Shown here: positions 12,212-32,670 of the stretch, in pieces | Layout of the letters: each line of letters opens with the position of its first letter | Position numbering within the stretch: the first letter of the stretch is position 1 | IMG/VR virus record: IMGVR_UViG_3300005534_000011 | Span: 11,887 to 75,886 of that record | Strand: one strand, 5' to 3' | Origin: a virus | Length of the DNA stretch: 64,000 nt | Position numbers and translations under genes: made by a program | Notes under the pieces: generated by a model | The model's input: only the letters and a program-made list of their open reading frames with translations | The model's database searches: none | What the model was told of the DNA's origin: nothing

Positions 12212-12632
12212 GGGGAGTGGTCTTATAATTCTCTCGATCCCACTAAACTGCCAAGGAAACCCCCAAAAAGGGACCCTGATTCACCCTCCCCCCGGCCCTC
12301 CCGGACACTACCCCCACCATCCATAATAGAACAGAATCACTAGTCACCCCAGTGTATCACAATCAATTCCGAAACACCATATAGTTTCGAACCATCCGCA
12401 ATCGATTCCCAATCCTTTGCATCATATCCAACCCACTCTATAAGCTCCTACAAGGGCCATAGCAGCCGCGATAGCATCAAACCCTACCCAATGCATCAAA
12501 TAGTATTCAATCAATCTCCTATCAATCCTATATCGATTCCTATGTATTGAAACAAATTGATTGCATCAAATGCTTGACAACCTATCACAGTGGTATAGAA
12601 TGATGATCATCCAAACCAATAGGAGATACCAA

Positions 12633-13013
12633 ATGAGTTACAAGGATCTAGAAGCCGAGATAAAGGCGTGGGCGAATCTGGAGGCTTATGCTCATCAGCA
12701 GAAGCTAGAAGCCGAGGAAGCTAAGCGACAAGCGAAACGGGACAAGCGGGATAAGAAGTTGGGGAAACCGGGGAAAGGTCTGTTGGTAGCCAAGCTTCCC
12801 GCTCCGAAGTTAGACCGACCGACCAAGATGTATAAACGCATTACGATTGAATGCAGGCCGATACAGCACAGGAAGTGGGGCGAACCGGTCGAGGTTACAT
12901 ATGAGGTTCAAGCCTTGACAGATGCGGTTGCCGAGGTGGCAGCGATCAAGCAAGCAAGGGTTGACGGTTATAGCTTTGATCGGGTTGTACATATAACCAC
13001 GTTTGAAAAGTGA
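12633..13013 (+). CDS. hypothetical early protein
   Basis: AGGAG RBS before ATG 12633, downstream of a TTGACA/TAGAAT promoter. Confidence 0.75.
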   Translation: MSYKDLEAEIKAWANLEAYAHQQKLEAEEAKRQAKRDKRDKKLGKPGKGLLVAKLPAPKLDRPTKMYKRITIECRPIQHRKWGEPVEVTYEVQALTDAVAEVAAIKQARVDGYSFDRVVHITTFEK

Positions 13014-13201
13014 AAGGATGTAGGTGTTTGAAAAGCCTTGAGAAATCAGGGCTTTTTGGTATAGGGTAGAATCGCTGGAAAAATAAATTGATTCTACCCC
13101 TTGACATCACAATAGAATCAGATAATCTTACCACAACAAAGCAACATTCATTCAACCACCCAAACGGGTTAAGGCTTTACTAATCGATCAAGGGGAATAC
13201 C

Positions 13202-13666
13202 ATGCGCCAAGTATCTAAAGCAGCTCAGGCAGAAACCATTTCTACTAACGTACTCGAAACCGCATCGACCGCCCTGTCACTGGCCGAAGATGCGTTGATC
13301 AAAGCAAAGGAAGCTTTGGCCGCTGCCGGTGGTTCTGGTGGGTCCAAGTCGGGAAGGGGATCGAAAGGTAAAGGTGGGGATCAAACCCCTGATAACGCTT
13401 CCAAGGGCTCGGCGGGTCGTAACCCTTCACCGGAACAGCTTGAGATTCGTTCCGCAATTATCGAAGCTTTGCAATCCGGTGAAATCAAGTTCTTTACCAT
13501 CGCCGAAGTGACCGAAGCCATGAAAGCTGACCGTATCCAAACCCGGAACGCGGTCAACTATCTGGAAGCTCAGAACATGGTTGTTCGGTACGGTGAAAAA
13601 CTCCCAGAAGGTCGCGGCCAGCGGGAATTGATCTACAAGGCCGGAGTAGTTCCAGTCCCGGCCTAA
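13202..13666 (+). CDS. winged helix-turn-helix DNA-binding protein
   Basis: C-terminal IRSAIIEAL...TIAEVTEAM...TRNAVNYLEAQNMV...GRGQRELIY wHTH pattern; own promoter (13101) and terminator (13683). Confidence 0.65.
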   Translation: MRQVSKAAQAETISTNVLETASTALSLAEDALIKAKEALAAAGGSGGSKSGRGSKGKGGDQTPDNASKGSAGRNPSPEQLEIRSAIIEALQSGEIKFFTIAEVTEAMKADRIQTRNAVNYLEAQNMVVRYGEKLPEGRGQRELIYKAGVVPVPA

Positions 13667-13682
13667 TGGGTTGGTAATGTAT

Positions 13683-13712
13683 AAAGCCCCTTAACCGGGG
13701 CTTTTTGTTGTC
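13683..13712 (+). terminator. intrinsic terminator
   Basis: AAAGCCCCTTAACCGGGGCTTTTTGTTGTCT; near-identical copy at ~31148. Confidence 0.85.
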
Positions 13713-13921
13713 TAGGGTTCTAGGGATTTGATATAAACCCATATAGCAACATTCCCCAGTAATCCACACCAATCATCAGATAGACTCCTAAACCCTCTCA
13801 AATCCCCTTAGAATCAACCAAAACCATATAGCAACATTCTAACCCTAAACCCATTCCCACACTTGACATTCGGAATTGATGGTTTAAGGTATAGGAACAT
13901 TCCAGAACATATAGGCATCAC

Positions 13922-14149
13922 ATGAAACTCTTCTATGTAGCAATCTTTCTGGTGGTAGCAAGTCTCCCTGTAGGCTTTATCGGTATCTATGCAGCTTGGG
14001 ACAGAACACCACCTCAATACCGCTTATTGCAGTTGGATCAAATCATGCATACCGGTGGAATGGTCTATCTCGCCATGGTCGCCGGATCGGTTCTGCTGTT
14101 TCTGGTCTGGTTGTCCCTTCCACTGAATCGCAGGGATTATCGGGTTTGA
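13922..14149 (+). CDS. small membrane protein (2 TM)
   Basis: Two hydrophobic segments; TTGACA promoter at 13863. Confidence 0.6.
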   Translation: MKLFYVAIFLVVASLPVGFIGIYAAWDRTPPQYRLLQLDQIMHTGGMVYLAMVAGSVLLFLVWLSLPLNRRDYRV

Positions 14150-14635
14150 TTTGATTGGGTATTCAATAGGTGAAATATCCCTCAATTTGATGGAATACCA
14201 GTGAATTCTGCTGAATGCTTTCGAGAGTGTTAGGGAATTTGTGTGGTATTTGATGGAATTACGGGATTTGATGGAATTTTTGTTGCATCAAATTTAGCGG
14301 ACGAACTTGGACTAACGAGAAAGTCTATCATTTAAGTGTAACGTTTTCATTCCACTGGAACGGTTTCGTTACACTTCCCAGAATTCCCAAACCATTCAAT
14401 ATCTCTCAATCATCCCAATGATTCTATAAGGGTTTGGTTCTATTATCAATCCCCTTAATAGTATCTGCTAAAATATCAATTTGATTGATTTGATTATATT
14501 TTGATCAATCCCAAAACCCCCGCTAATTTATTTCAAAATCCCCCTTGATTAAAGCTTGATTCTGTTTCGATTCCTGCTATTCTATACCTATTACCACCTA
14601 TCAACTATTACCTACCAGCTTCTAAGGGGTTTCAC

Positions 14636-14956
14636 ATGGCTAGCATTATGGAACAATTCAAGGCTTGGGTTAACATTCAAGCCACCGATGATCCTGATCG
14701 AATCATTGACCATCATTCATGGGTTTCCTGTGCTATTGGGGAGTTTGCTACTCACTTAGGTTATAATGGGTTTCCTGCCCATCAAGTGAGTGATGCTTTC
14801 AAGCGTCATTATGGAATTGATGCATGGAAATTATTGGGGAATGCTGGTTCTGTTTATAGTGGCTTCGGTTCCGGTTGGAAAATGGTTGTTGATATGACCA
14901 CCTATAAGGATTTGGCGGATTGGTTGAATTCTTTGAATCCCTTGGAGCCATTCTAA
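14636..14956 (+). CDS. CA(V/I)G(Q/E)F-family hypothetical protein
   Basis: IIDHHSWVSCAIGEFA...TTYKDLA. Confidence 0.75.
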   Translation: MASIMEQFKAWVNIQATDDPDRIIDHHSWVSCAIGEFATHLGYNGFPAHQVSDAFKRHYGIDAWKLLGNAGSVYSGFGSGWKMVVDMTTYKDLADWLNSLNPLEPF

Positions 14957-15636
14957 TGCATTGGGTTGGTTCGCTGATTATTATAGGTCTTTTGATGGCC
15001 TGTACCGGAATGATGGTAATTGGCTATGGTGATATGCCTAAGCATTCATTTTGGTATGTGATTGTTTTGGATTCATCTGTTGTCTTGATAGGGGTTTGTG
15101 TTCTATCATTGATTGGGCTGTTGGGTTTCTTGAAGGTATAGGGGAATTTTATGAAAGCATTATATCATGTAACCGCAAAATCTAAGGGGTTTGTAGTTCA
15201 TACCTCTTTTCAAGTGGCTGATAGTGTGGAATCCGCTATTGAAATTATAAAGGAGTTTTATGCGGTTGTTCCGAAGGATTCCCAATGGTCTGCATATAAA
15301 AGGCGGGAATTATGATATTGGTTGAATCCATTGTAATTGATGGTAAATTGATTGGGGCGATAATGATGGATTATAACGGTTATTTCTATCGTCCTAATCA
15401 ATTAGGGGTTTTGGGTTGGTTGAAATATATGTTTTCCGATATCTATTACTTCGGATCTATCTCTGAGCTTAAAGAGTCCTTATTGAATTGATGTAAATGC
15501 TAATATTTTGATGCTTTGGGGCGATTTATACCAGAATATTAGCATTTACTATTTTGTTTTGATTCTTGCTTGAAATGGCTTGACTTTTGTTTTGATTCTG
15601 GTAAGCTTCTCCCATTCCTTAATTGAGTGATACAAA

Positions 15637-15975
15637 ATGACTATCCAATCCGCCGATTTGAAATTGATCACCGAATTCCGCGACTTCTGTGCATCTAAAG
15701 GTAATGAGCCTATCCAGCATCGGGATGGCTGGGGCCATGCGAACTGGAATACCTGTGCTGTTGGACAATTCGCTAAGTTCAAAGATATTCCCAATATCGA
15801 TGGTGACCGTATGGCCGGGATGTTGAAATCTGCGTTTAACATCATTCAAAATACCCCATATGGTTTCATGATTGATTTGGGTAGTGGTGACTCGGCAGAA
15901 GAACAATATCCGACCTATGATAAGGTTGCGGATGCTGTAACTACCATCATCAATAAATTTCAGGGGGTTGTATGA
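15637..15975 (+). CDS. CA(V/I)G(Q/E)F-family hypothetical protein
   Basis: LITEFRDFC...PIQH...WNTCAVGQFA...YPTYDKVA. Confidence 0.8.
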   Translation: MTIQSADLKLITEFRDFCASKGNEPIQHRDGWGHANWNTCAVGQFAKFKDIPNIDGDRMAGMLKSAFNIIQNTPYGFMIDLGSGDSAEEQYPTYDKVADAVTTIINKFQGVV

Positions 15976-16304
15976 TCCTTTCAGAAACCACTCGTGATGA
16001 GGCGTTGACCCTGATCACTGAGTTCCGGGACTTCTGTTTGACCCGTGGTGATGCTCCTATTCAACATCTGAATAGACTGGGTTCCGGTTGGGATACCTGC
16101 GCAGTGGCCGAGTTTGCGGCAACCAAACAAATCCCCGCCCATTCTCCGGGTAATGTAATGGCTTGTATGTTGCGACATGCTTTTCGCACTATCGATAATA
16201 CTTCGGTGTTTATGATTGAATTGGGCTTGGTTTATAGTGCTCAATCCAAGTATCCAACCTTCGACAAGTTGGCCGCAGATTTGACCACTATTCTTAATCA
16301 ATAA
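15972..16304 (+). CDS. CA(V/I)G(Q/E)F-family hypothetical protein
   Basis: LITEFRDFCLTRG...PIQH...WDTCAVAEFA...YPTFDKLA. Confidence 0.8.
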   Translation: MILSETTRDEALTLITEFRDFCLTRGDAPIQHLNRLGSGWDTCAVAEFAATKQIPAHSPGNVMACMLRHAFRTIDNTSVFMIELGLVYSAQSKYPTFDKLAADLTTILNQ

Positions 16305-16318
16305 GGTATATCATTAAC

Positions 16319-16690
16319 ATGAAACCACATAACGCTCTGAAATTGATTGAATCTTTCAGGGACTATTGCTTGACCCGTGGTAAAGATCAAATTGTCCACA
16401 AAGTACCGGGTGGTTGGGCAAGTTGGAATACCTGCGCTGTTGGTCAATTCGCCGATTACAAGAAGATCAAAAAGGGCGATGCCGGGCGTGGTAATAACAT
16501 GTACGAAAAATTGCTTACAGCTTATAAAGCAGTGGGTATTTCGTATGGTATCGGGGTGCTGTTGTATAAATTGGGTGATACACGAACCGCCGAAAAACAT
16601 TATCCAACCTTCGACAAGCTCGCCAAAGCTTTGACCAAGGATATCAAAACCGGTATGGGTAACATCAAAGCCAATAAGGTGAAGGCATGA
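16319..16690 (+). CDS. CA(V/I)G(Q/E)F-family hypothetical protein
   Basis: LIESFRDYCLTRG...WNTCAVGQFA...YPTFDKLA. Confidence 0.8.
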   Translation: MKPHNALKLIESFRDYCLTRGKDQIVHKVPGGWASWNTCAVGQFADYKKIKKGDAGRGNNMYEKLLTAYKAVGISYGIGVLLYKLGDTRTAEKHYPTFDKLAKALTKDIKTGMGNIKANKVKA

Positions 16691-16812
16691 AAAGCAATCA
16701 AAAAGGTTTTACCGCTGTTGAATTGTGGATTTGCATCTGGGGTGTTATCTGTGTTGGTCTGATGGTTGGTGCTATCGGTATCGGCCTGCATTTCATCATG
16801 AAATTCTGGTAA
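16687..16812 (+). CDS. 41-aa mini-prepilin (class III signal peptide plus TM helix)
   Basis: Not in ORF track; translates MKSNQKGFTAVELWICIWGVICVGLMVGAIGIGLHFIMKFW; ATGA-coupled to the upstream gene. Confidence 0.7.
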   Translation: MKSNQKGFTAVELWICIWGVICVGLMVGAIGIGLHFIMKFW

Positions 16813-16879
16813 TTTCAAAAGTAATTTGACATTTGATGCAAAGGTGCTATCCTCTAACCATCACTAAGGGGATTGCATC

Positions 16880-17257: not shown

Positions 17258-17971
17258 TGAAAAGCCTCGGGAAACCGGGGCTTTTTATTTGGGGTTGGGT
17301 ATTGCATCAAATCCATAGGGTGTTATACTGACCCTACACCAACCGAGGGGCAGACCATGAACCGTAAAGAAGCATTCCTAAAGATCAAATCCGTAGCGGC
17401 GGATGATGGGTTTACCAAACTGGATGTTCTGCCGATGTTCAAAGGTGTAGCACCTTCGGTTGTTAATGGCTATTTGAAAGCCGCGTATGAACTTGGGTTC
17501 ATTACCCTGAATGCAGGCAACCCGCTGTGCATGTACCCGACCATCAATCTGCGCAACCTGAAATAATTAGGAGGTAACCATGGAAATTTTGGTTCATAAC
17601 AGTATCAATTTCGTTAATGGTTTGGCGATGAATATCACCAACCCAGATACATTCTCGGTCCCAAGCCTTGACGAAAAGCTGGCGGTAAAACCGGGTGGTC
17701 ATATCAAGATTGGGGTTAAGGTGAACTCCCATAACATCAATTGCGAACGGTTTTGGGGTCGGGTGGTTCAAAACGATACCGATAACCATATCATCACAGT
17801 GATGATTGACAATGATTTGATTTGTACCGACATTCATGGGCTGCGTTATGATGATTGTATTCAAGTGCCCTATGATGTCGTGTTAGATGTAATTTGATCA
17901 AATAGGGGTTTGCATTTGATGTAAACCCTTGCTATACTGCTATCACACCAACCAAATCAAGGAATACCAAA

Positions 17972-18235
17972 ATGGCTATCGTCAAAGCTGTTGCAAACAC
18001 CCAAGACCTGAACAAAAACTGTGTTCTAATCTCAAAGGTTGTTAATCAGGTGGACGGCAACACGGTGCTGGTTTATATCCTGTTCATCAATAACAAGCCG
18101 GTCAACCACACTGCAAGCTTTGACCGCGCACTGGGTTGGTATGACAAGAATGTGACCGACGTTGTTAACCCGGTTGAAGTGGTTGAAATCGGCCATTATG
18201 CGTGTGGTACTATCCACATCAAAGAAACCCGATAA
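17972..18235 (+). CDS. hypothetical cassette protein
   Basis: Follows hairpin promoter and CACCAACCAAATCAAGGAATACCAAAATG leader. Confidence 0.75.
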   Translation: MAIVKAVANTQDLNKNCVLISKVVNQVDGNTVLVYILFINNKPVNHTASFDRALGWYDKNVTDVVNPVEVVEIGHYACGTIHIKETR

Positions 18236-18313
18236 ATTTGATCAAATAGGGGTTGCATTTGATGTAACCCCTGCTATACTAACCCCATACCAACCAAATC
18301 AAGGAATACCAAA

Positions 18314-18631: not shown

Positions 18632-18900
18632 TGACCAAGCGAAAGAGGCTCTATAAGCTGTTGCGGAAGCTCTGGAAGTTTCTTTGATGGTATCCAACCC
18701 GGTCTAATCAGCCGGGTTTTATTTTGCCTAGACATCTTGACAACCATACAAAAAATATGAGAAAATGAATTGACGACCTATATTTGTGGTTGGCATGAAA
18801 ATTTCCGTGAACTATTTGATGCAAATAGCTTTAAACCGCTTGTATTGCATCAAATTAGGAGTATACTGACCCTACACCAACCGAAACAGGGAATTCAAAC

Positions 18901-19341: not shown

Positions 19342-20662
19342 ATCGATTTAAAATAATCGAAATAGGGGTTGCAATTTGATGTAACCCCTAGTAAACTGCA
19401 ATTACACCAATCGAAATGGAAGTTGGCAAAATGATCATCATCAAAGACGAGTTCACTAGCGGCGCTCAGGTAAGCATGGAAATGGATAAGGACGCGGGCG
19501 AGCTGTTCGTTTTCCATTGCCCTGCCGGTCAAGGCTGCAAGGTCAATAAATGGCCTTTGGATAGCTATCATATGCCCATTGCGATGGCGTATTACACGGA
19601 ATGCTGCACAATTGAACAGCCAGAACCAGACGACATCGATTCAACTTTTGCATGCATGTGTGACGAATAACCAGCGTCAATATAGGGTTTGCATTTGATG
19701 TAAACCCTTGCTAGAATCTAATCACACCAACCAAATCAAGGATTATCGAAATGGCTACCGAAACCCACCTGACCCGCGAAGTGTTCACCCTCAATAAGCA
19801 GTCTGTTGGCGTCAAAGTTGCTTATAATGGTTGGTGTGCCACCTATAACGGTGACGACTGTTCGTTGTCTGATATCCCGGCTCAGTACCACGAAACCATC
19901 CGTAAGGTGGTGACCGTAATTTGCCTCGAAAATAACTGGGTTGATATGGGGGCGGTGTAATGAGAGAACAATTAATCAAATTGATACAAGCGTGGCAAAC
20001 TTTGGGGTTTATTAATAGTACCCTAATGCGACCTGTCGATTATGATAGGCTGGTGTCGTCCAGACGTGCTATAGAAGTGGCTGTTAAAGCGCTCGCCGGG
20101 GTTAGCAGTTCGGCCAGCATCATTGAAGCTATGCAGGTCGTGGGTATTACCCATGATGACCTTGACCATCAATAAGGGATTTGATCATGGCAATCGGCGA
20201 ACGCAAAAGCATCAAAGGGGCACCATCACTCAAGGTTTTTGAATCGGTGATGATTAACCCACACGGTCGGGCAATCCGGTTGGACATCTGGAAGACCGAC
20301 CAGACCGATGTTAATGATAGTATTTTCGTTTTCTGTGCCAATGATTTTATCCAGACCTACGACACCGACAAGACCCTTTTGCTTGTCGAGCTGGCCGCGT
20401 ACATGGTGGATAACCTGTAATTTGATGCAAAAGGGGTTTGCATTTGATGCAACCCCTGTTATACTGGTATCACACAAGGGAGATACCACCATGTTAGACA
20501 ACAAGTTTTCAAAGGGCGACAAAGTTCAAGCCGATGGCCCTTTCTGGCTTACCGTCACCGAAGTGCGTGCTAATGGCTGGTATAGCTGCATTTTCGGTGC
20601 CATCGGCGGTTATGCTGGTTCTTTCCGTGAAACCCAACTTTCAAAATATACTGGAGCATAAC

Positions 20663-22324: not shown

Positions 22325-22398
22325 CATCAAATAGGGGTTGCATCAATTGCAGCCCCTGCTATACTAACCCCACACCAACCAAATCAGGATTACATAAC

Positions 22399-22833
22399 AT
22401 GCAAATTTCTAAAGACATAACCGCAAACGTTCTGGCCGGTGTAATAACCTCCGATGTTAAACGTGTAGAGGCTGCCCGTGTATTGGGTATGTTCCGGGTT
22501 GTTCTGGTCGAGGATGAAACTTACAGTTTTGAAGACCTGTGCGGCGATATGTATAACCCGGAAGCTAACCCGGATGTTGATGTAACGGTGTTGGCTCGCC
22601 AGAAGCGTGCATATCGTGCCAGAGTGAACCGCGACGGTGTGTATGGTTCATTGGCTCAGGTACGGAATACACCAACTGGGTTATGGGTCACGGTTGAATC
22701 AATCTGGGGTTTTGTGGGTGAAGATTTTATCGGTTCCGGTTATGAATCGGACTTTATCGAAAATGCAAGTGAGTGGTTGTTTACAAACCTCGATTTGCCG
22801 AAGCTTCAAGCGGCGTTCAAAGATTTGATGTAA
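22399..22833 (+). CDS. hypothetical cassette protein
   Basis: Hairpin promoter 22333-22365 and leader. Confidence 0.75.
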   Translation: MQISKDITANVLAGVITSDVKRVEAARVLGMFRVVLVEDETYSFEDLCGDMYNPEANPDVDVTVLARQKRAYRARVNRDGVYGSLAQVRNTPTGLWVTVESIWGFVGEDFIGSGYESDFIENASEWLFTNLDLPKLQAAFKDLM

Positions 22834-25433
22834 TTTGATCAAATAGGGGTTGTATATGATGCAACCCCTTGCTATAATTACCTCACACAAACCGGAGTAC
22901 ATAACATGCACAACATCCAAGCGGTCAACGACAAACTAACCGAAGGTAAAGCCACTGACCTACTGTTTACCGGGTTTCGTCAGGCCATGCGTGATGGCAT
23001 GAACTATGCCCATTTCAATAGTGGGTGTGATGCGTTCGGGTTGGATGTTGTCGAAGTCCCAAGGGTCAACCAACTTAACGGCCAAAAATATTGGTCCCTT
23101 CGGTTGTATTGCGATTGTAAATTGGTTGCAACCGCCTACGCGGATGAACATGATTTGTAAGGGCTTGACAATCCAGTTACACCTGATAGGCTGAATCACT
23201 TTTTACCTTGAGGCGTCACCATGCAAACCACGACCGTATCTCAAACCGCCTATAACCCCTCTCAGGGCGTTGTAAGCAGCCAACCCATGCAACCGGCCTA
23301 CCGTGCCGAGTACAACCCACTGTCGGCCCGCTGGATGGTTCTGAGCGAGTTTGATGTATGTGTGCAGGCTGGTTTGAGCAAAGTTGCGGCTATTGCATTA
23401 GCCGAAAGCCTCTAAAGATTTGAAAAGAGCCCCGAAAGGGGCTTTTTGTTGTCTAAAAATAATTTGATGTAATCATTGACATAACAATTCTGTTCTGTAT
23501 AATTCAATCCATACCAACCAATCGGATTAATCAAAATGCTTACTCAAACCAGCCTGAAACATCCAGTAATGCAAGACCGCATCCTGTCCGGGTTGATCGA
23601 AGCCCAGACCAAGGCCGAAAACGCCGGTCATGGTCGCGCCTACGTGGCTAATTCGAAAGGTAACAACATCATGCGGGTGGACGTGTTCAAACCGGGCCAA
23701 GTCGATTGGCTGCCGAAGGGTGGTGTTATTGTGTACGGTGAAAGCTCCCGGACCATTACCAACATGGTGGAATCCGCGTTGGGTTCTAAGCTTTCCGACT
23801 TGATTTGATCATAAGCCCCTGATTCTAGGGGCTTTTTATTGTCAAAAAATATTTGCATCAAATGCTTGCAATGGTCTGAAATGGGTGTAGACTACCTATA
23901 TCGAAACCAAACAGAGGATTCAATCATGGCCCGTCGCGAAATACAACTGACTTGGAAAGGCGAAGATGGTGTAGAATTCACCTCTAACACCGCTATCAAT
24001 GGAACAGAAGACGAAATCATTGATTATTACATGAATAATCAATTTAACGTTGGTAAGGGTCCGAACGATTATATGGCGGTTTGTGTTGCACTGGATTTTA
24101 CCGATGTTAAACCGGTTGATGTATTCGGAATTAATAACTCGTTTGGGGGTCTGTGATGCTCTATACATTGCTTGGTTTGTACCTGATGACCGGTGCTACT
24201 AGCCCAACTGATACTGTCGAGAAAATCGAGGGCATGCATTTGGAACAATCGGTTTGTGTTCAACGTGCCAAAATTCTGGCGGATGAATTGGGTGGGGCTC
24301 GCTGCCGACCAGAAGAGGAACTAGACGAAAACACACCGTATCGGAATACCCTCACAAAGATTCAATTGCCATCGGGTCGGGTTATTGAGTTGTGGTACAC
24401 CCGTGGGGTTTGGTCTTATCCTGCTGATTTGGTTGATGAGGATCGGGAGCTTATCGAGCAATACACCCAATTCGAATACAGCCGCTGAAAATAAAATCGG
24501 AATAGGGGTTGTATTGCATCAAATTGAGATTATACTAACCCCACACCAACCAAATCGAGTAAAGATCATGAAAACCGCGACCAAGACCTACGCCATAGTT
24601 GACGTTAAAAAATGGTGGTTCTCGCACTTCACCATCAATGGCAATGGGGTTTATAGTTTCACCATCCAAACCGAAACCGGTGAAATCATCAGCGGCAAGA
24701 CAGCTCCCGGCCTGAATCAACATCTGTCGATGAGTCCTGCTAAGCTGGCAGACGTGACCATCAGCACAACCCCGACCGGTCGTATCAAGATGACCAACGC
24801 CAACCGGGCCTAAAGAATTTGATGTAAGGGGGTTGCTAATTGATGCAACCCTGTTATAATTCCAGCACACCAACCGAAATAGGGATTCAAAAATGGCTAT
24901 CGCACACGACATAACCTGCAAGAACTCGACCAATCCTAAAGGCTTTCACGTTAGCTTTAATGGTCGCCGGGCTGGGGCGTTGGGTGTTACCTATGCCGTG
25001 CAAATCAACGTTTACGCGGATACCGAAGAAATGGCACACACCGCCATCTATCAGGAATATGAACACCTGATGTTCGTCAAAATCACTCCTATCAATGGTG
25101 ATTGATATGACCACTAATCGGGTGTTCAAGAAGGGTGACACCGTAGGTTTAAAGGCATCGGTTCGTAAAGGTTGGAAGTGTCCAGAAGGCCGAGAGGACA
25201 ACCAAACCGCCGATATCAGAGCGACCTACAGCGATAAAGGCGAATGCTGGTTAGACCATGATTTACACGGCTGCAAGTATTGGAATCAAGAGGATTTGAT
25301 TTTGATTCAAGCGGTTGAAGACAAGACGCCCCAATAGGGGCTTTTTGTTGTTCAAAAATATTTGCATCAAATGCTTGCAATAGGTTGGAAACCGGTTATA
25401 ATGAACCACACCAACCAAATCAAGGATTCAAAA

Positions 25434-25841: not shown

Positions 25842-25846
25842 TTGGG

Positions 25847-26200: not shown

Positions 26201-26204
26201 GGGC

Positions 26205-26429: not shown

Positions 26430-28480
26430 AAATAATTTGATGCAATCCCTTGACGGGGTGGTTAGGTTGCATCATACTGACTACACAATCAAAGGAGCTA
26501 CACAAATGAAACTTACACCATTGCAAGCAAGTAAGAAAATCCGCGAACATCTGAATCAAGGTAACGGCATATACATTGATGGTCGTTACTATGATGTCAG
26601 GGTACATGCTGGAATGTTGCAGGTTTCCGACTTTCGAAGCTGGTTTGTTGTGCAACCCGGTGCCGAGTTCCGTAACAGCCACGGTCGTACACTCTTCACC
26701 TATGAACCGATAGAAGGGGCTTGACATGGCGAACCAAATCACCGCTATGCAAACTCAAGTTGATGAGCTTACAACCCGCATCAACTTAGCTGATGACAGC
26801 TTGCAATCATTCCGGGCGTATCTGTCAAGTCCGAAATTCACCGGGGACAGTGAGTTACAAGGTTACATATCAATTCAAGATGTTGAACACCATCTAGCCG
26901 CTATCTGGCGGGAGTTACACGGTTTGAATTGATCCAAGCCCCTGATTCTAGGGGCTTTTTATTGTCCAAAAATATTTGTATCAAATGCTTGCATTACATC
27001 AAATAGCTGTTAGAATGAACTCACACCAACCGAAACAGGAATTCGAAAATGGTCATGAAACTGGAACAAATAACCGAAGCTCTGAAAAACAAACATTTGG
27101 AAACTGTCAAGAAGGAACTATGTCGGTATGGTGATATCTTGGATGTGCAGGACTGGGAAGACCACCACGGGGCACATCGTTGTTATACCATTCAATACCA
27201 AAATGCAAGTTTCGATATATCTATGTTGAACGGTGCAACCATCAATATCAAACAGGGTTGAACATATGAAATTTCAAGACACCTTTACAGACCGGCTGAC
27301 CGGACAAAAGTTTACGGTTGAAATTGAAATCAACCAAGGCGAAGTGTCGAAATTGTTAGCCGCTAGGGCATGGGGCAGCAAGTCCGGGAAAAGTCAAGCC
27401 CTGAATGGTGATATCAAATGCAAAATTATTAAACGTGAATAGCATCAAATAGGGGTTGCATTTGATGCAACCCCTGCTATACTAACCCCATACCAACCAA
27501 ATCGAGTAAACATCATGGCACGTCAAACCCGCTACACCGTACAGGCACTACGCGCAGATATCAAAGAATTGAACGAGACTTTGAAGGCAACCGGGTACTA
27601 TCTGGGGGTTGAATGCCGCAACGGTTACACCGGGTTGGACGAATACCGGGTTAGTACAGACCCGGCTAAGCGTGATACTTGCGTTCGCAATATCGAATGT
27701 GGGTCGCCCCGCGATTGTTGGGAAGCGGCTCGCCTGTATACCCCACGCGATAACAGCTAAAATAGTTTGATAAAGGGTTTACATTTGATGTAAACCCTTG
27801 CTAGAATCTAATCACACCAACCGCTTTAGGAGCTTTCAAAATGAAAAATCTGATTCTTGGTATCGCACTGGTAACCGCATCCTTCGCCGCTGTTGCGGAT
27901 GGTCAACAAAAATGCGCAGAATTGGTTCACACCAGAACTCTGGCCCCAATCTCCGAATTCTCCGACGCAACCGCCGCCACTCCTTATTACACCGTGGCTC
28001 GCCAAAAAGGCGGTTCGACCACTACCTATCAATGTGATGGGATGGGTAACTATCGGCAGTTGATGGATTACGGGTGGTCCATCTGGCGCACCGGTAACGA
28101 ATGGAACGCTGTTCACTGGATGCAGGGTTGATAAAAAGGGGTTGCAATTTGATGTAACCCCTAGTAAACTGCAATCACACCAACCGATAGAGGGTCCGAA
28201 CATGTCTTACATCGTCGCCAAAGCAGCAAAGGCCCTCCTAGACAAAGCTCTGGATGAGGCGTCGGCGGAACTTCGACAATTCGATCAGTTCAAGGGTGCA
28301 ATGGGCATGACCCCGGACCATATCAAAGCTACCCCGGAGTTTCGGAAAGCAAAACATGCATTTGATGTAGCTTTTCAGACTTCCCGGAATTTTAACGGGG
28401 ACTTTAACAAACGGTACAAAAAAGAAATTGCCGCCGACCGTCGCGCACGCTACAATCAATCCATTTAAGGAGTTACAACC

Positions 28481-28798
28481 ATGTCCGAATTGATCAAAGA
28501 ACTATCCGCCGCTCTGGACTTCGCCACCGAAGTTTTGAATACGGCACCCCCGCAAATCTGTCAGGTCAAACTGACCGCCGAACCGGGTAAGGTTTGGATT
28601 CGTCTGGTGTATACCGAATTGAACCGGGACGGAACTGTAAGCGACCGTAGCCGCTGCTGGGGGTTCATGGATGCAGACGGCAACCTCTGGAAGTCGGCAG
28701 GCTGGAAGGCCCCAGCCAAAAACAAACCACGCGGAACACTGGCGGATTTGCACGACCCCAAGAAGGTCGAAAGCTGGCGGTATGGTGGTGTGCAATAA
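28481..28798 (+). CDS. phage hypothetical protein (KxAxWKAPAK motif)
   Basis: GFMDADGNLWKSAGWKAPAKNKPRG motif; AAGGAG RBS. Confidence 0.7.
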   Translation: MSELIKELSAALDFATEVLNTAPPQICQVKLTAEPGKVWIRLVYTELNRDGTVSDRSRCWGFMDADGNLWKSAGWKAPAKNKPRGTLADLHDPKKVESWRYGGVQ

Positions 28799-28938
28799 CC
28801 GAAATTGATGAAAAGCCCCTAGAATCAGGGGCTTTTTGTTGTCCAAAAATATTTGCATCAAATGCTTGACCGGCCCTCAAATTGATGTAAACTAACCATA
28901 TCGAAAGGCAAAACGCCTTTTCCAAGGGAGTCAAGACC

Positions 28939-29760
28939 ATGGCAGTAGTAGATAGCAAAGACCTGTACACCTTCATATCGACCGGCGACAAAGTGGCTAT
29001 GTACACCCTGCGGGTTATGTGTCTGTGCCGGGTTCAGGTGGGTGATTCCGCATTCAATGAAATGCGTGACTATTACATTCAAAACCTGTCGAACGACAAG
29101 GCAACCGCCGAAGCGAAAGCGGCTGAAATGTCCGGCCTGATGAATCTGGAATTTAAAGGGAACGCGGATTTTGAATTGAATGAAATCCGTCGAATCCGTG
29201 ACGAAATGGCATCCGAAAAACGTGAAGCGGCAGAACGGGCGCATCAAGAGCGTATCGCCGAATGGGCGGCAGAACGCGCAGAACAGATTCAAGCTGGTGT
29301 GTTCATCATGGGTAAACATACCGGTAAAACCGCCGCCGAAGTCGCTGTAGAGGATTTGGGGTATCTGTTCTGGCTGGCCGGTGAAGTGGAAGCAAACGGC
29401 AAACTAGGGATTTGTGCGAAAATCGCCGCTAATTACATCCAGTTGACCGGGGTTGAACTCCCCGGCTACATCGGTGAAGTTGATCAACCAATTGAAGTAA
29501 CCGCAACCCTGAAGCGTGTGTTTTGGACCCAATCCCAATACCCTACATTGATGCACATTGCAACTACCGTACAGGGTAACGAGATTGTGTTTTTCAGCGT
29601 TGCTCAGGGCTTCAAGGAAATTGAAATCGGCCAGACCTTCACCATCACCGGCACCGTTAAAGAACAGAGAGAAGGCTGGGGCGGTACTAAACAGACTGTT
29701 ATCGGCAAACCTAAGCTCCCTAAGCCAGCCAAAGCGGCAAAGGTTAAGAAGGTGGTTTGA
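28939..29760 (+). CDS. putative nucleic-acid-binding protein (GKHxG...YLxW motif plus C-terminal OB-fold-like domain)
   Basis: FIMGKHTGKT...LGYLFW; YIGEVDQ...FTITGTVKE...KQTVI. Confidence 0.55.
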   Translation: MAVVDSKDLYTFISTGDKVAMYTLRVMCLCRVQVGDSAFNEMRDYYIQNLSNDKATAEAKAAEMSGLMNLEFKGNADFELNEIRRIRDEMASEKREAAERAHQERIAEWAAERAEQIQAGVFIMGKHTGKTAAEVAVEDLGYLFWLAGEVEANGKLGICAKIAANYIQLTGVELPGYIGEVDQPIEVTATLKRVFWTQSQYPTLMHIATTVQGNEIVFFSVAQGFKEIEIGQTFTITGTVKEQREGWGGTKQTVIGKPKLPKPAKAAKVKKVV

Positions 29761-29789
29761 CAGGACATCAAAGCGGGTCTAAGGTGGTG

Positions 29790-29880
29790 TTAAGCGTACA
29801 CGGATGTATGCGGTTGTTGGGCGTCCACTCCCAACCGCCAGCCCCTTGCCCGCAAGTCTAAAAGCTTCGCGGGCATTTTT
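29790..29880 (+). ncRNA. candidate ~90-nt small RNA with Csr/Rsm-type hairpin
   Basis: Promoter TTGACA-17-TAAGGT at 29757-29785; three stem-loops, the last a terminator ending in TTTTT; no RBS-supported ORF. Confidence 0.5.
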
Positions 29881-30515
29881 ATGTCAATTTTTAGAGTATC
29901 GAAATGAAATATCATCAAAATTTGATGTTGCATTGCATCAAAACCTATGGCAAAATGATAGTAATCGGAGCATATACCCCATTTCTGGCGGTCATGATCT
30001 GGTCTGAAATCAAAAACATTTTGGGTTGATTTTAAAAAGGAGTTTGATAGAATAGGAAGGGTAAGACATGAAAGCCAAGAATTTGATACATGAATTGATT
30101 CCAGCGGAAAAACGGCTGGCTAAGATTGATGAAATCGACCGGGAGTTAGAGCGGCGGTTAGCAGCTCAGGAAATCACCCTTGTCGAGTATTTCGAAACCA
30201 AACAACCCTTGACAGTCAAGCGGTTTAAAGAGTTTCGGTTAGTTGCACGGGCTCGCGGTTGGAACCTGAGCGAAAACCTTGATGTACCCGAGGTGTCAGA
30301 AGCTCTAGAAGAACCCGAGGTGTTAGAGGTTCTGGAACCAGCCAAGCCGGTGCCCATTCGTCAAAGGCTGTTAGGCTTCTTGATTGTATTACTGATGATG
30401 TGTGCTGTTTCGTGGGTTTGGCGGTGATACATCAAACCCAAAAATGATGCAAAAGTGCTTTACAACCCAACTGGGTTTGATATAATCAACCTACTTACTT
30501 AAAAGGATGTACATC

Positions 30516-31031
30516 ATGACCAAATCGACCGCTACCCAAGCCGCCAAACCAGCTAAAGCCAAAACCACTGCTGTGTCGGCACCCAATCTAACAACCGTGG
30601 GTCCGGTTGTGGACAAGACCCCGCCGAAGCGTGTACGCAAGCCAGCCGCACCCAAGGCGGTCCCAACCACACCGGTTCAAGTTGCCCCAGTTGTTCCTGT
30701 AACGCCTGTAGCACCTGTGATCGTTATCCCGGTCAAAACCGGTGCAGGCCGTCCAATCTCGGCAGAAGCCGCGAAAGTTCGTCGTCGGGTGGTGGGTGTG
30801 TGGTTCAAACTGGTCGCGGCTGGTGAAACCGAGGTGACGGTTAAGGCAACCGCCAAAATTGTCAAGCTCAAAAAGGTCACTGTATCCAACACTATCCGTT
30901 GGGCTGAATCGGTTGGACTCATTACCCGAATCGGTTACAAGTTGAAAGCCGGTCCCGGTCGTAAAGAAGTGTTCTATACCGTCAACCCGGCCAAGCTGAC
31001 CGAAATGGTAGCGATTCCAGAGGCGGCGTGA
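30516..31031 (+). CDS. winged helix-turn-helix DNA-binding protein with Pro/Ala/Lys-rich N-terminus
   Basis: TVKATAKIVKLKKVTVSNTIRWAESVGLITR...GPGRKEVFY; resembles 13202. Confidence 0.65.
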   Translation: MTKSTATQAAKPAKAKTTAVSAPNLTTVGPVVDKTPPKRVRKPAAPKAVPTTPVQVAPVVPVTPVAPVIVIPVKTGAGRPISAEAAKVRRRVVGVWFKLVAAGETEVTVKATAKIVKLKKVTVSNTIRWAESVGLITRIGYKLKAGPGRKEVFYTVNPAKLTEMVAIPEAA

Positions 31032-31248
31032 TGTTCTGTCGCATTTGTGGGGCTCGCCTGTACGTGAAGGGGGTTTGCACCATCTTTTGCCCTAACCGTA
31101 AGTGTGGGGTTGGACCACCCTTTACATAAGACACCTGAAACCAAATCAAAGCCCCTTAACCGGGGTTTTTTGTTGTCTGTAGAAAAGTGGTTGACCTAGT
31201 GACAGATTCGTGTATAGTGCCGCCCATTCTGTTTTGAATAGGTGACCC

Positions 31249-31902
31249 ATGAATCAAAATACAATCCTAGACCTGTTCCGACATCATCAGGACCGCAACC
31301 TAACCGATTACAGGGCGCTCAAGTTGGCTTTCTGGTATGACATGCAACAAGCCGGGGCCGAGCTGTTAGGGGCCGGATGGTATAGCACGGTGTGGGCAAT
31401 TGGTGGGCGAGTGTACAAGATCAATTCGGGATCGAACGGCGGGCGTGATGGGTTTGTGCATTGGGTTGATGGTATCCGTGGGTTTGATTCCAACCCCCAC
31501 TTGCCTAGGGTTGGTTCAATCGCTGTGGATTATGAGAGGTATTGCATCGAATTAGAGCCCCTGACCCCTTTGCAGCCTAGCGACTTCGAATTGATGGGGT
31601 TTGCTGGATTTGATACAACTGTTAAAGGGCTGGCTGATTATGTCCGGGGATTGCCTGATTTGGTCGAGGCTATCGAGCTGGCGTATGGGATCGTACAACG
31701 GGTGAACCCCGAACATGACTATGGCCCTAACCCTGATTTGTTCTGTAAGCTGTCGTCTATTGACTTTTCGAACGGTTCACGGTTCCCTAATTTGATGAAA
31801 CGCGGGGATACACTGGTACTTAACGATCCGGTTGCCTATAGTGCTGAATCAATCGAGCCCTATAACATCAAATTGCGTCAAAGTCTAGGTCTAGCGGCCT
31901 GA
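31249..31902 (+). CDS. putative Ser/Thr protein kinase (T7 gp0.7-like fold)
   Basis: LGAGWYSTVW Gly-loop, VYKI, HLPRV, ELEPL, D...NLM, LVLNDPV. Confidence 0.6.
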   Translation: MNQNTILDLFRHHQDRNLTDYRALKLAFWYDMQQAGAELLGAGWYSTVWAIGGRVYKINSGSNGGRDGFVHWVDGIRGFDSNPHLPRVGSIAVDYERYCIELEPLTPLQPSDFELMGFAGFDTTVKGLADYVRGLPDLVEAIELAYGIVQRVNPEHDYGPNPDLFCKLSSIDFSNGSRFPNLMKRGDTLVLNDPVAYSAESIEPYNIKLRQSLGLAA

Positions 31903-32633
31903 TCTTTATTTGATGAAACCTATTGACCCCGGTGAAAGCTGGGGTTATAATTTGATCATGAAGTAGCGGGGTTGTGAACCCGGAGATAATCAAGGAGGGT
32001 GGACGTCATTTGAGTTGGCATGATTTTTGACTTGCGAGATTCATGCCAGTTTTCTCGAAAATATTTTCAAAAATCGTGAAAATAGTGGTTGACACGGATC
32101 TTGGGGTATGCTATTCTGAGGGGTTGACCCGACGCCCCCTTCTGAAAATTTTTCCGCCCTCCCCTCTCGATTTTTGCGTTTTTCGAGAATTTTTCTCATT
32201 TGGATGTTTTCAGGCCCCCTTCTGATGGAATTCTGTTCAATCCTATGAATTTTCTTCTATATAGTAGCTGCCCTTCGGGTCACATCCGCAAAGCGTCTGT
32301 GATTTGTGATAGAATTGATTTGTACTATATAGAAAGGATTAGAAATACAGGCGAGCCGTAGGCGAGTCTGTATCCCCGAAGGGGTGGTAGGAGGCTTGGA
32401 AGGGTTTGTATTATATATTCGGTTTGGCAGAATTAGTTCTAGGGTATCACACTTTTCAGGAATTCTAAACACCTTGGCAAAAAACTCGACCGGAAACTAC
32501 CTCGACGGATACTTGCTCGACCGAAAAAGACCACCACCGGCAAAAAGCTCGACCGATTCTGTTTAGATTCTGAGTCGGTGCCTATATAGTAGCTACTCAA
32601 CCACACCGGAACGGGTTCAAAATAAAATCATCG

Positions 32634-32670
32634 ATTCTGTTTAGAATGACCTGAAACCGTGCAATAATAG
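32634..32670 (+). promoter_or_regulatory. ATTCTGTTTAGA-class promoter
   Basis: Motif followed by a -10-like hexamer; recurs at ~32556, 44423, 47049, 59846, 63281. Confidence 0.65.

Follow-up and report, generated by a model that had tools for sequence, protein, structure and literature searches.

An uncultured T4-like soil phage: PeSL-type promoter cassettes and a conserved 10-base box in its probable main hyperplastic early-gene region

Background

PeSLs are sigma-70-like promoters combined with polyG/polyC stem-loops, which possibly overlap the -35 element and contain G-T pairs (Arbiol et al. 2010, PMC2839356; Comeau et al. 2014, PMC4122927). They have an AT-rich upstream part and an SD sequence with ATG at the 3' end, precede ORFan cargo, and show crossovers between the -10 element and the ATG (PMC2839356, PMC4122927). 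Phages that carry them include RB49/phi1 (Arbiol et al. 2010, PMC2839356) as well as PST/T4 and nt-1/KVP40 (Comeau et al. 2014, PMC4122927). In lambdoid morons, no conserved linker sequence flanks the gene, and insertion is regarded as illegitimate (Hendrix et al. 2000, as discussed in PMC2839356).

We analyzed a 64,000-nt stretch of an IMG/VR fragment (the window, by which the whole stretch is meant) from an uncultured, T4-like soil phage. An island within it is, with a probability of roughly 0.8, the main hyperplastic early-gene region of this phage, made of PeSL-type cassettes. A preliminary description had suggested that the island looks like an undescribed system, but its kind was described in 2010 and again in 2014. 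The design is already known from T4-type phages; the lineage is new, and a conserved 10-base box comes in addition.

Results

The phage and its relatives

The T4-like set found in the phage comprises rIIA/rIIB, gp32, td, nrdA/B, a dexA-like exonuclease and a long tail fibre. Its closest cultured relatives are the Pseudomonas phages Milchi and Astolliot, whose gp32 is 64-67% identical and whose gene order is the same. The window's own contig is ~44% complete. It was compared with two metagenomic relatives, G002 (a complete genome of 183 kb, with the island at 47-71 kb) and G003, and with Milchi and Astolliot; "three phages" below denotes the phage of the window, G002 and G003.

The same modules are carried by both metagenomic relatives and by Milchi. 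In G002, the palindrome occurs 61 times versus 4 in the control, and the leader 43 times forward versus 8 in reverse. The G003 island has the module grammar of the window, and Milchi contains at least 16 copies of GGGGTTGTA-loop-TACAACCCC-TG-TATACT.

Anatomy of the island

Between 12.5 and 32.1 kb, the window holds ~57 small plus-strand ORFs and ~30 stereotyped intergenic modules of ~75 nt. Each module consists of a terminator or 9-bp GGGG...CCCC hairpin, a sigma-70-type promoter, a ACACCAACCRAA leader, an RBS and an ATG placed 31-34 nt past the -10 element, and heads one to three tiny genes. Cassettes occupy 29 of the 56 gene junctions (~1.9 genes per cassette). The principal features are as follows.

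12110..12560, + strand: left boundary, about 520 nt, non-coding and conserved, with the same architecture in G002 and G003; two 48-nt direct repeats (GGAAAACTTTTTAGA...TTTTTTGGAATCG), a possible promoter, a C-rich tract, then 3-4 boxes
12561..12632, + strand: island cassette no. 1; box abutting TTGACA-16-TAGAAT upstream, then leader and RBS
13202..13666, + strand: winged-helix (wHTH) paralogue 1, P0001, 154 aa; long N-terminal helix, disordered linker, C-terminal winged helix
14150..14635, + strand: non-coding gap with box cluster, long hairpin and second-class promoter (ATTCTGTTTCGA...)
14186-14292: box cluster within this gap, TTTGATGGAA three times and TTGCATCAAA
17258..17356, + strand: cassette with intrinsic terminator (a 31-nt copy identical to 3408-3438), TTGCAT-16-TATACT promoter and ACACCAACCG leader
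17898..18313, + strand: type-A cassettes 17898-17971 and 18236-18313 with an 87-aa ORF between; hairpin GGGGTTGCA-loop-TGTAACCCC surrounds the -35 element
18790..18900, + strand: type-C cassette without hairpin; one box upstream, one in the spacer (TTGTAT-TGCATCAAA...TATACT)
19342..19750, + strand: type-A cassettes 19342-19430 and 19671-19750, near-identical to 28132-28201 and 27761-27840, respectively
20421..20490, + strand: type-A cassette; two co-oriented boxes 22 nt apart
22325..22905, + strand: type-A cassette with flipped loop (22325-22398) and type-A cassette (22834-22905), 144-aa ORF between
23416..23925, + strand: type-B cassettes 23416-23535 and 23809-23925; GCCCC...GGGGC-T5 terminator, A/T stretch, box, promoter
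24489..24892, + strand: type-C cassette 24489-24567 and type-A cassette 24814-24892
25338..25433, + strand: type-B cassette
26933..27048, + strand: type-B cassette with second box in the spacer; 5' part 93% identical to 23800-23870
27443..28201, + strand: three type-A cassettes (27443-27514, 27761-27840, 28132-28201)
28799..28938, + strand: type-B cassette preceding a 273-aa ORF
29757..29900, + strand: non-coding cargo with its own TTGACA-17-TAAGGT promoter, two hairpins (GGA in the loop of the first) and an intrinsic terminator; kept in G002 and G003
30516..31031, + strand: wHTH paralogue 2, P0002, 171 aa; Lys/Ala/Pro-rich disordered N-terminal half, C-terminal winged helix
31903..32640, + strand: right boundary, about 750 nt, mostly non-coding; strong promoters at 31923 and 32089 without clear ORFs, CTCGACCG iterons at 32476-32555, CTATATAGTAGCT twice; ends at the first GATTCTGTTTAGA-class promoter
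32631..32675, + strand: first second-class promoter (GATTCTGTTTAGA-17-AATAAT), the island end; repeat families D10 and D18

A direct scan found ~30 intergenic TTGNNN-16/17-TANNNT promoters from 12574 to 32089, all on the + strand. A generic TTGACA/TATAAT scan gave only a modest excess (50 matches versus 35.8 +/- 6.1 in shuffles) because most of the island's -35 boxes are TTGCAT or TTGTAT. With at most one mismatch, the leader motif CACCAACCRAA has 27 matches where 3.5 are expected (16 on the + strand at 17.3-28.2 kb), and the box TTTGATGYAA has 110 where 17.6 are expected, a level reached in none of 100 shuffles; 28 of 32 exact box copies lie inside 12.5-30 kb. The ~30 recurring promoter cassettes ahead of one to three small genes, as first described, are thus borne out by module counts, junctions and motif enrichment. 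So are the five near-identical distant pairs, aligned over 53-98 nt (19364 vs 28137, 95%; 19684 vs 27774, 96%; 22321 vs 27439, 91%; 23813 vs 26936, 93%; 17891 vs 18235, 89%), and the recombination of parts between sub-types, which appears as chimeric cassettes in the overlapping repeat families D2-D17. The dedicated box, non-coding cargo (at least one unit) and special boundaries that had been noted are likewise present, and both boundaries are conserved.

Hairpin and terminator

Over 25 hairpin copies from two phages, 98.2% of the stem positions pair, a level matched by none of 500 shuffles, versus 39-55% in slid controls. The copies include double changes between G-C and U-A, together with G.U wobbles on the + strand. 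Folded as RNA, the hairpin has a predicted free energy of -15.7 to -19.3 kcal/mol on the + strand (z -3.9 to -4.8) and of -8.7 to -11.5 kcal/mol on the - strand. Since UGCUAUACU rather than a U-run comes immediately 3' of the type-A hairpin, this structure would be at best an attenuator or 3'-end stabiliser.

We propose that the ~75-nt module would act as a self-contained expression plug of three parts. The 9-bp GGGG...CCCC RNA hairpin over the -35 element, or a GC-stem and T-run terminator, would end or attenuate the upstream transcript. A host sigma-70-type promoter (-35 TTGCAT/TTGTAT/TTGACA, a spacer of 16-17 nt, -10 TATACT or TAnAAT) would follow, and the fixed C/A-rich leader with its RBS would set the ATG at its constant distance. 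All modules would be read by host RNA polymerase right after infection, and these -35-dependent promoters may later be silenced by the clade's AsiA homologue. AsiA homologues scoring above the Pfam cut-off are found in G002, G003 and Milchi; a search for the MotA C-terminal domain gave no match, and the control of the same search was also silent.

Comparison with described systems

As in PeSLs, a sigma-70-like early promoter is joined with a terminator or with a polyG/polyC stem-loop, which can overlap the -35 element or fall within the spacer and whose stem contains G-T pairs. An upstream stop codon falls in the AT-rich part, the 3' end is formed by SD and ATG, ~75-100 nt are conserved, and the cassettes crowd a hyperplastic region ahead of small ORFans. 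The PeSL cassettes had been offered as an analogue; the likeness goes further, as every sequence-level defining PeSL feature is present. The island differs from known PeSLs in its lineage, an uncultured soil phage related to Milchi and Astolliot, in -35 elements that are mostly TTGCAT or TTGTAT set in a palindrome, and in a strongly fixed leader whose variants persist in distant relatives. The less ordinary elements are a specific 10-mer box, which fills two fixed slots in both orientations and is more widespread than the stem-loop, and the two wHTH paralogues at the island flanks.

T4 early promoters have a GTTTAC -35 consensus and A-rich upstream tracts, and are not known to have a GC palindrome or a fixed leader. 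The island resembles T4 early regions in its sigma-70-dependent early promoters clustered before small non-essential genes and in the AsiA homologue of its clade, but has both a GC palindrome and a fixed leader. Like lambdoid morons, it presents single genes with their own promoter and terminator; unlike those of morons, its linkers are near-identical repeats.

Cassette turnover

The islands of the three phages contain 57, 67 and 70 ORFs, of which ~27 ordered families are common to all. Gene content is otherwise mosaic, with AB-only, AC-only, BC-only and unique genes and relocated families. With an identity of 89-96% over 50-100 nt, the modules could serve for crossovers by the homologous recombination of the phage itself, so that units of cassette and small gene would be deleted, inserted or swapped without an integrase, as in the published PeSL model and as first suggested for this island.

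Of the 11 indels between Milchi and Astolliot (86% identical), 7 touch a cassette. In four, the junctions lie within cassettes, between -10 and ATG or in the AT-rich part as in PeSLs, where the AT-rich box or leader-SD-ATG (27 nt in one case) recurs as a direct repeat. These repeats mark homologous exchange between cassettes, and such junctions are the recombination signature of PeSLs. They belong to this sister lineage rather than to the phage of the window, and an "intergenic-only" selection filter accounts for part of the evidence. The breaks at repeats expected among relatives are found in the Milchi/Astolliot pair; the three 70-75%-identical relatives, in contrast, show no enrichment of synteny breaks at cassette versus tight junctions (Fisher p 0.18-1).

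This last result would suit cassettes that are not mobile at all, their likeness being due to selection for a strong early promoter, insulator and leader, and gene turnover to illegitimate recombination that survives between genes. Many variable blocks have a cassette at one edge only, one Milchi/Astolliot indel lies within a gene and several are distant from any cassette, and no recombination joints were seen in the source-run contigs. We consider such immobility unlikely, however, given the repeats at the four indels. Orthologous genes are preceded by differing cassette types, so that the cassette is uncoupled from the gene downstream; non-orthologous copies share hairpin variants particular to their lineage (p 0.012 and 0.003); and far-apart copies remain 89-96% identical along the full module, including positions with no known promoter role. 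In RB49 and phi1, mini-circles have been demonstrated experimentally (PMC2839356).

With imperfect palindromes between its small promoter-adjacent cassettes, the array also recalls integron cassettes with their attC hairpins. Strand-biased wobble pairs and flipped loops inside constant arms would fit palindromes that serve a dedicated recombinase. A site-specific system of this sort is nevertheless extremely improbable and was disfavoured: integrase and recombinase families are absent from the 30 island proteins scanned (~27 of the smallest ORFs lying outside the scan), the hairpin is missing from more than half of the cassettes, every cassette brings its own promoter, and junctions fall at plain direct repeats in the AT-rich part or leader-SD segment instead of at one set point of the hairpin.

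Genome ends and cargo

In SPO1, whose genome is non-permuted, the host-takeover module is part of the terminal redundancy and contains genes with demonstrated host shut-off roles. The island shares its dense strong early promoters and terminators before many small genes, and a long terminal repeat injected first, which would be a module of the SPO1/T5 kind, had been raised as a possibility. Beyond this analogy, the homologous Milchi island stands at the end of a linear GenBank record, but the starting points of assembled phage genome records are arbitrary. An exact terminal repeat that enters the cell first is very improbable, because source-run contigs (records 1 and 8) span both island boundaries at a depth of 9.5-13.7 throughout, with no doubling. 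In G002, the island is internal, and the repeated contig ends are the pattern of a circular or permuted genome assembly. T4-type phages package by the headful mechanism and have circularly permuted genomes (PMC4122927).

The island's cargo proteins are ORFans of unknown function, in further contrast to SPO1. None of 30 proteins matched a Pfam family above its curated cut-off, the sole match at E <= 0.01 falling below it; in PHROGs, 10 matched families of unknown function only, besides one weak kinase-like match. The label "anti-host genes" thus found no backing.

The box and the winged-helix paralogues

Across the three phages, the box occupies one of two fixed promoter slots in 88 of 105 cassettes, its start lying either 34-40 nt or 15-24 nt ahead of the -10 element, i.e., about two helical turns apart, and is seen in both orientations. 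In 30 of the 33 cassettes with a box in each slot, the two boxes point the same way, the -35 direction being unchanged. The stem-loop is less universal than the box in this clade, as the hairpin occurs in only 44 and the terminator in 23 of the 105 cassettes. The wHTH genes reported near both island ends are paralogous in their C-terminal domains (hhalign 96.5%, E 8.6e-10), which are predicted to fold as winged helices, and the pair flanks the island in all three phages.

It is possible, if doubtful, that TTTGATGYAA is where a putative phage-encoded regulator binds, which would extend the PeSL reading without displacing it. The candidate would most plausibly be one or both winged-helix paralogues, tuning or repressing ~30-40 early promoters and itself. 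The fixed slots, the conserved flanking pair and the prevalence of the box over the hairpin are consistent with this, as is the fold, which matches the MarR/MepR, ROK, ArsR and AspA DNA binders, though with Foldseek E-values of only ~1e-3. Milchi and Astolliot have no P0001 homologue and the box is mostly missing from these slots of their cassettes, a correlation that amounts to one evolutionary contrast.

The box may have more ordinary origins. In type-A cassettes, it is simply the hairpin loop plus 3' arm. UP elements are positioned immediately upstream of -35, where the type-B box sits in an A/T-rich stretch, and PeSLs have their AT-rich part in the same place. Co-orientation may reflect two amplified founder types, because cassette copies are non-independent, and early shut-off would already be supplied by AsiA. 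Boxes also cluster away from promoters, at 12417-12570 and 14186-14292, and these clusters, which favour a regulator, are kept in G002 and G003. Likewise in favour, the promoter of P0002 itself has a box upstream and a box-like TTTGATATAA covering its -10 element, and such a site lies over this -10 in all three phages.

The phage and its relatives

Outside the island, the window encodes rIIA, rIIB, a gp32-type SSB, thymidylate synthase, NrdA and NrdB, a DexA-like exonuclease and a 1167-aa long-tail-fibre protein. Because these T4-type genes flank the island, the source phage, represented by a 75.9-kb IMG/VR contig of which the window is bases 11887-75886 and which is estimated to be ~44% complete, is classed by gene content as a T4-like myovirus. 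Two cultured Pseudomonas phages, Milchi (PQ464597; host P. poae) and Astolliot (OM982621; host P. syringae), have gp32 proteins with 64-67% identity to that of the window phage, and Milchi has the same gene order: small-gene run, tail fibre, exonuclease, rIIA/B, gp32, frd, td and nrdAB.

When the island was compared by megablast with 50,697 phage records, no match was found, and a distant-mode search gave patchy matches to Milchi and Astolliot only. A protein-guided scan recovered two metagenomic relatives that align colinearly with the window, with about 70-85% identity at the nucleotide level, namely G002 (IMGVR_UViG_3300047444_000299, a complete 183-kb contig) and G003 (IMGVR_UViG_3300046810_000101, a 167.8-kb contig). 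When metagenomes were scanned for the island protein that is best conserved, a single distant relative was recovered. The sole public DNA run with the window sequence is a soil metagenome, which may be its source; its contigs (Logan) are called source-run contigs here. No public RNA run with the sequence was listed.

Anatomy of the cassettes

Approximately 57 small ORFs were called on the + strand between 12.5 and 32.6 kb, and a direct scan identified ~30 intergenic TTGNNN-16/17-TANNNT predicted promoters, all on the + strand, from 12574 to 32089. Repeated modules (cassettes) occupy 29 of the 56 gene junctions of the island. Two short sequences characterize them when up to one mismatch is allowed: the box, TTTGATGYAA, with 110 occurrences against 17.6 expected (28 of its 32 exact copies lie in the island), and the leader word CACCAACCRAA, with 27 occurrences against 3.5 expected, 16 of them on the + strand within 17.3-28.2 kb. 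The five pairs of similar cassettes named in the preliminary description are 95, 96, 91, 93 and 89% identical over 53-98 nt. Its claim that parts are recombined between sub-types was borne out by overlapping repeat families, in which the 5' and 3' parts of modules are found in differing combinations. Three sub-types were distinguished.

Cassette sub-types in the window
Type A; 11 copies; A-rich flank, GGGGTTGCA, 5-nt loop, TG(C/T)AACCCC, 2-3 nt, TATACT
Type B; 5-6 copies; GCCCC...GGGGC stem with T-run, A/T stretch, box in opposite orientation, -35, 16-nt spacer, TAnAAT
Type C; hairpin absent; box within the spacer, often with a second box upstream

In type A, the hairpin's 5' arm holds the -35 element (TTGCAT) on its inner side and the box is made up of the loop and the 3' arm, while in type B the oppositely oriented box abuts the -35 element (TTGACA or TTGCAA). 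All types run on into a C/A-rich leader (ACACCAACC(A/G)AA), followed by an RBS and ATG. Among the 105 modules of the three phages (the window phage, G002 and G003), the distance from -10 to ATG is 31-34 nt in 69, a GGGG...CCCC hairpin lies over the -35 element in 44, and a predicted GC-stem and T-run terminator is present in 23. The cassettes were also inspected by eye for promoter sequence able to mask the RBS on read-through RNA, and no complement to the SD was seen. Separately, a 31-nt terminator is 100% identical at 3408-3438 and 17260-17290, 13.9 kb apart, and source-run contigs break or branch exactly there.

Conservation of the type-A hairpin

In an alignment of 25 type-A hairpin copies from two phages, 98.2% of cells were paired, compared with 39-55% in slid controls, and none of 500 shuffles reached this value. 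One position showed covariation in the form of G-C to U-A double changes, and three positions carried G.U or U.G wobbles, which allow pairing on the + strand only. The predicted folding energy of the + strand RNA was -15.7 to -19.3 kcal/mol (z -3.9 to -4.8), whereas the - strand gave -8.7 to -11.5. On these alignments and foldings, the hairpin is under selection. Since no U-run follows it, we read the hairpin as a probable attenuator or 3'-end stabilizer for read-through transcripts rather than as a full terminator.

An exact-pattern scan of IMG/VR for the 21-nt hairpin found it in one unrelated 36-kb phage contig (IMGVR_UViG_3300044640_000918, positions 582-602). That copy sits in a promoter-like context, with an A/T flank and a -10 element downstream, and is followed by a structured leader and an ORF that, by eye, looks HNH-endonuclease-like. 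The flanking genes of that contig showed no homology to the island.

The cassettes as promoter-early stem-loop elements

Promoter-early stem-loop elements (PeSLs) are sigma-70-like early promoters combined with a polyG/polyC stem-loop, in five positional sub-classes that include overlap with the -35 element and placement in the spacer (PMC2839356). They admit G-T pairs, have an AT-rich 5' part containing the upstream stop codon and an SD and ATG at the 3' end, are conserved over ~100 nt, and are sited in hyperplastic regions ahead of ORFans (PMC2839356). PeSLs were subsequently extended to T4/PST and KVP40/nt-1, with an own consensus in each lineage (PMC4122927).

The preliminary description had named PeSLs as an analogue, and the likeness holds point for point. 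The predicted promoters of the window are sigma-70-like intergenic repeats with -35 and -10 elements 16-17 nt apart. A GGGG...CCCC hairpin, backed by covariation and folding energy, or a predicted terminator lies next to or over the promoter. The 5' part is AT-rich with a stop codon, an SD and start codon stand at the 3' end, and conservation extends over 53-98 nt. T4 core genes flank the island, whose cargo consists of small ORFans of mosaic content. Judged from these features, it is nearly certain that the island is built as a PeSL array, and we interpret its cassettes as a new lineage of a known kind of element (PMC2839356, PMC4122927) rather than as the undescribed system proposed earlier. 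Of the earlier interpretation, PeSL-like recombining cassettes stand, whereas the terminal repeat, the anti-host cargo and the new kind of system are either wrong or without support.

The same grammar is found in relatives. In the homologous island of G002, the palindrome occurs 61 times (control, 4), and the leader is found in 43 forward and 8 reverse copies; the homologous island of G003 has the same cassette grammar. Milchi carries at least 16 homologous modules, composed of GGGGTTGTA, a variable loop, TACAACCCC, TG and TATACT, with the leader GATCACATCAAAAC; the Milchi paper mentions neither promoters nor such cassettes (PMC11780129). A more distant relative (Ga0247812_10000111; GC 38%) has its own early grammar, TTTACT-17-TATAAT behind terminators, and its early modules contain neither the box nor a GC hairpin, yet its leader, CCATCAAAACGAA, resembles that of the window. 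On these comparisons, the promoter, insulator and leader are the deep features, and the box is specific to the sub-lineage. Leaders just after -10 are alike across early-promoter grammars that otherwise differ, those of the distant relative and Milchi included (CCATCAAAACGAA, CACATCAAAACGAA, ACACCAA(A/C)CGAA), and this comparison suggests that the first transcribed bases may have a function beyond the provision of homology.

With these observations, the PeSL design reaches a fourth branch of T4-like phages, one that is common in the environment: the Pseudomonas-type phages of soil and phyllosphere. PeSLs serve as self-contained promoter, insulator and leader linkers that allow small accessory genes to be swapped by plain homologous recombination, and the stereotyped ~75-nt module offers a ready annotation key for early genes of the clade.

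Probable recombination at the cassettes

The islands of the three phages contain 57, 67 and 70 ORFs, of which ~27 families are common and in order. Each combination of two genomes has families of its own; beyond these there are many genes found in one island alone and a few families that have moved or changed places. From phage to phage, the module ahead of an orthologous gene may be of another type or absent, and a module frequently resembles a non-orthologous copy more closely than the copy at the equivalent position. The ATGTAA arm is present in 6 of 11 type-A copies in the window and in 0 of 14 in G002 (p = 0.003), while TTGTAT is present in 1 of 11 and 8 of 14 copies, respectively (p = 0.012 for C versus non-C at that hairpin column). 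Such lineage-specific variants across non-orthologous copies indicate that hairpin variants probably spread, or were converted, within a genome.

Milchi and Astolliot, with a similarity of 86% (PMC11780129), are a cultured pair that provides junction evidence for the PeSL model at the sequence level. Their island alignment contains 11 indel or replacement gaps, of which 7 touch a hairpin-promoter module. Four gaps join inside modules, at direct repeats made of module parts: one at a 10-nt AAATAATTTG upstream element, two between -10 and a conserved AGGAGAT(A/T)CACCATG segment, and one at a 27-nt leader-SD-ATG repeat. These positions are the crossover zones that were reported for RB49 mini-circles (PMC2839356). 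Among the three genomes at 70-75% identity, by contrast, tight junctions and cassette junctions showed broken adjacencies equally often (Fisher, not significant). The source-run contigs showed no variant letters, indels or alternative joints and merely break at repeated cassettes. The even spread of broken adjacencies and the lack of alternative joints both speak against a strong claim. From these alignments, a role of the cassettes in recombination is well supported at the level of the clade, and we infer the same role in the window's own phage.

Two other kinds of cassette or module system were considered. The SPO1 host-takeover module, whose cargo genes shut off host functions, belongs to a non-permuted genome and sits inside its long exact terminal repeat. 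The island probably has no such position: source-run contigs cross both of its boundaries at similar depth, with no doubling there, and it is internal in the complete G002 contig, which speaks against both a SPO1-type module and the long terminal repeat suggested previously. T4-type genomes are circularly permuted (PMC4122927). An integron comprises an integrase, attI and attC-bounded promoterless cassettes, whereas every island cassette has a promoter to itself, and the junctions seen are ordinary direct repeats; no recombinase family was found in the 30 proteins scanned, the larger ones of the ~57, and an integron-like system was rejected.

Local rearrangements relative to the relatives were noted at 27049-27442, 15312-15491 and 21704-21877. 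They include two adjacent genes whose order is swapped in G002, a small gene that adjoins the right-hand winged-helix gene in G002 and G003 and sits at the left end in the window phage, and one family that is differently placed between phages and occurs twice in G003. Three tandem paralogous genes (112, 110 and 123 aa) at 15637-16690 have a single homologue in G002. A 41-aa ORF at 16687-16812 is found only in the window phage, with no homologue in G002 or G003.

Island cargo

The preliminary description had proposed anti-host genes as cargo, a proposal that found no support. None of 30 island proteins matched a Pfam family above the curated cut-off, one sub-threshold match being to ExoX-like_C in a 273-aa ORF, and the 10 proteins compared with PHROGs matched families of unknown function and, weakly, one kinase-like family. 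Rfam at gathering thresholds returned nothing, and no tRNAs were found.

The box and the bracketing winged-helix proteins

As described earlier, wHTH genes lie near both ends of the island, and they bracket it in all three phages.

13202-13666; wHTH gene near the left end (product P0001)
30516-31031; wHTH gene near the right end (product P0002)

BLASTP did not link the two proteins; profile-profile comparison did, the C-terminal domains being homologous (hhalign 96.5%, E 8.6e-10). Neither protein has a Pfam match. AF2 models of both domains (pLDDT 85-91) have the order H-S-H-H-S-wing-S, and the top Foldseek matches of both are all wHTH proteins (AspA, ROK, MepR/MarR, ArsR; E ~1e-3). The models point to winged-helix domains and make both proteins putative DNA binders. 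A 142.8-kb contig encodes P0001 and P0002 identical to those of the window.

The box is present in 88 of the 105 modules of the three phages (~85%) and is commoner than the hairpin. It occupies fixed slots, starting 34-40 nt or 15-24 nt upstream of the -10 hexamer, approximately two helical turns apart, and occurs in either orientation independently of promoter direction. Of the 33 modules with a box in each slot, 30 have the two boxes in the same orientation, with the direction of the -35 element unchanged; module copies are not independent, so a nominal p-value makes the co-orientation look stronger than it is. Two clusters of boxes outside promoters, at 12417-12570 and 14186-14292, have conserved counterparts in G002 and G003, and in all three phages a box-like site covers the -10 of the P0002 promoter. 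In Milchi and Astolliot, which possess only the second paralogue, most modules have no box in these slots.

It is conceivable, though we consider it rather unlikely, that the box is the operator of the two bracketing winged-helix paralogues. These would then form a sequence-specific master regulator, encoded by the phage itself, that acts on 30-40 early promoters in addition to AsiA. The two phased slots in ~85% of cassettes, the co-oriented pairs and the conserved clusters away from promoters speak for such a regulon. Against it, the type-A box is merely loop and arm of the hairpin, the type-B box lies in an A/T-rich stretch upstream of -35, where PeSLs have their AT-rich part, and AsiA, the standard shut-off of -35-dependent promoters, is already present in the clade. 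The box may also resemble the consensus sequences of a UP element and an IHF site. If the box proves to be an operator of the bracketing proteins, T4-type phages would have a second, sequence-specific layer of early-gene control. A search for MotA (MotCF) gave no match, and control genomes were equally silent, so that this negative carries no weight.

At 14186-14400, within a 486-nt non-coding gap, four box copies in 110 nt are followed by a long hairpin (GTGTAACG...CGTTACAC); the G002 counterpart has a direct repeat in place of the hairpin.

Non-coding unit, boundaries and second promoter family

Non-coding cargo, also anticipated, was located at 29757-29900, where a predicted promoter (TTGACA-17-TAAGGT) and a ~95-nt unit are conserved in G002 and G003. 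The unit consists of two hairpins, the first of which carries GGA in its loop, and a GC-stem/T-run intrinsic terminator, while a 67-aa ORF that overlaps it is not conserved in these relatives. It is a candidate phage sRNA, possibly one that binds Rsm/Csr. The special boundaries of the earlier account were likewise recovered: both island ends are long, conserved and mostly non-coding, each with its own repeats.

Boundaries of the island and second promoter family
12110-12400; left boundary; two 48-nt direct repeats (GGAAAACTTTTTAGA...GAAAAATTTTTTGGAATCG), possible TTTGGA-16-TATAAT promoter, CCACTAAACTGCCAAGGAA word, C-rich tract
32250-32600; right boundary; CTCGACCG-type iterons at 32476-32555, CTATATAGTAGCT at 32257 and 32582 with an inverted copy at 32323, GCCCCCTTCTGA twice
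32631, 44420, 47046, 58435, 59843, 63278; second promoter family, (G)ATTCTGTTTAGA-17-TAnnnT; ahead of genes right of the island

The layout of the left boundary, including the conserved CCACTAAACTGCCAAGGAA word, is repeated in G002 and G003, and this stretch may contain an origin, regulatory sequence or a non-coding RNA. The right boundary could be origin-like or late-promoter-like. The right end of the island coincides with the first promoter of the second class (GATTCTGTTTAGA-17-TAnnnT), which lies upstream of the exonuclease, rIIA and other genes right of the island; degenerate copies occur at 14556 and 32554. The family probably represents a different temporal class. Its spacing is not that of a T4 MotA box.

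Further to the right, at 39970-40842 (- strand), a gene adjoining the tail-fibre gene consists mostly of repeats with a 9-nt period, rich in CCACC/GCACC on the + strand, and encodes on the - strand a Gly-rich repeat protein.
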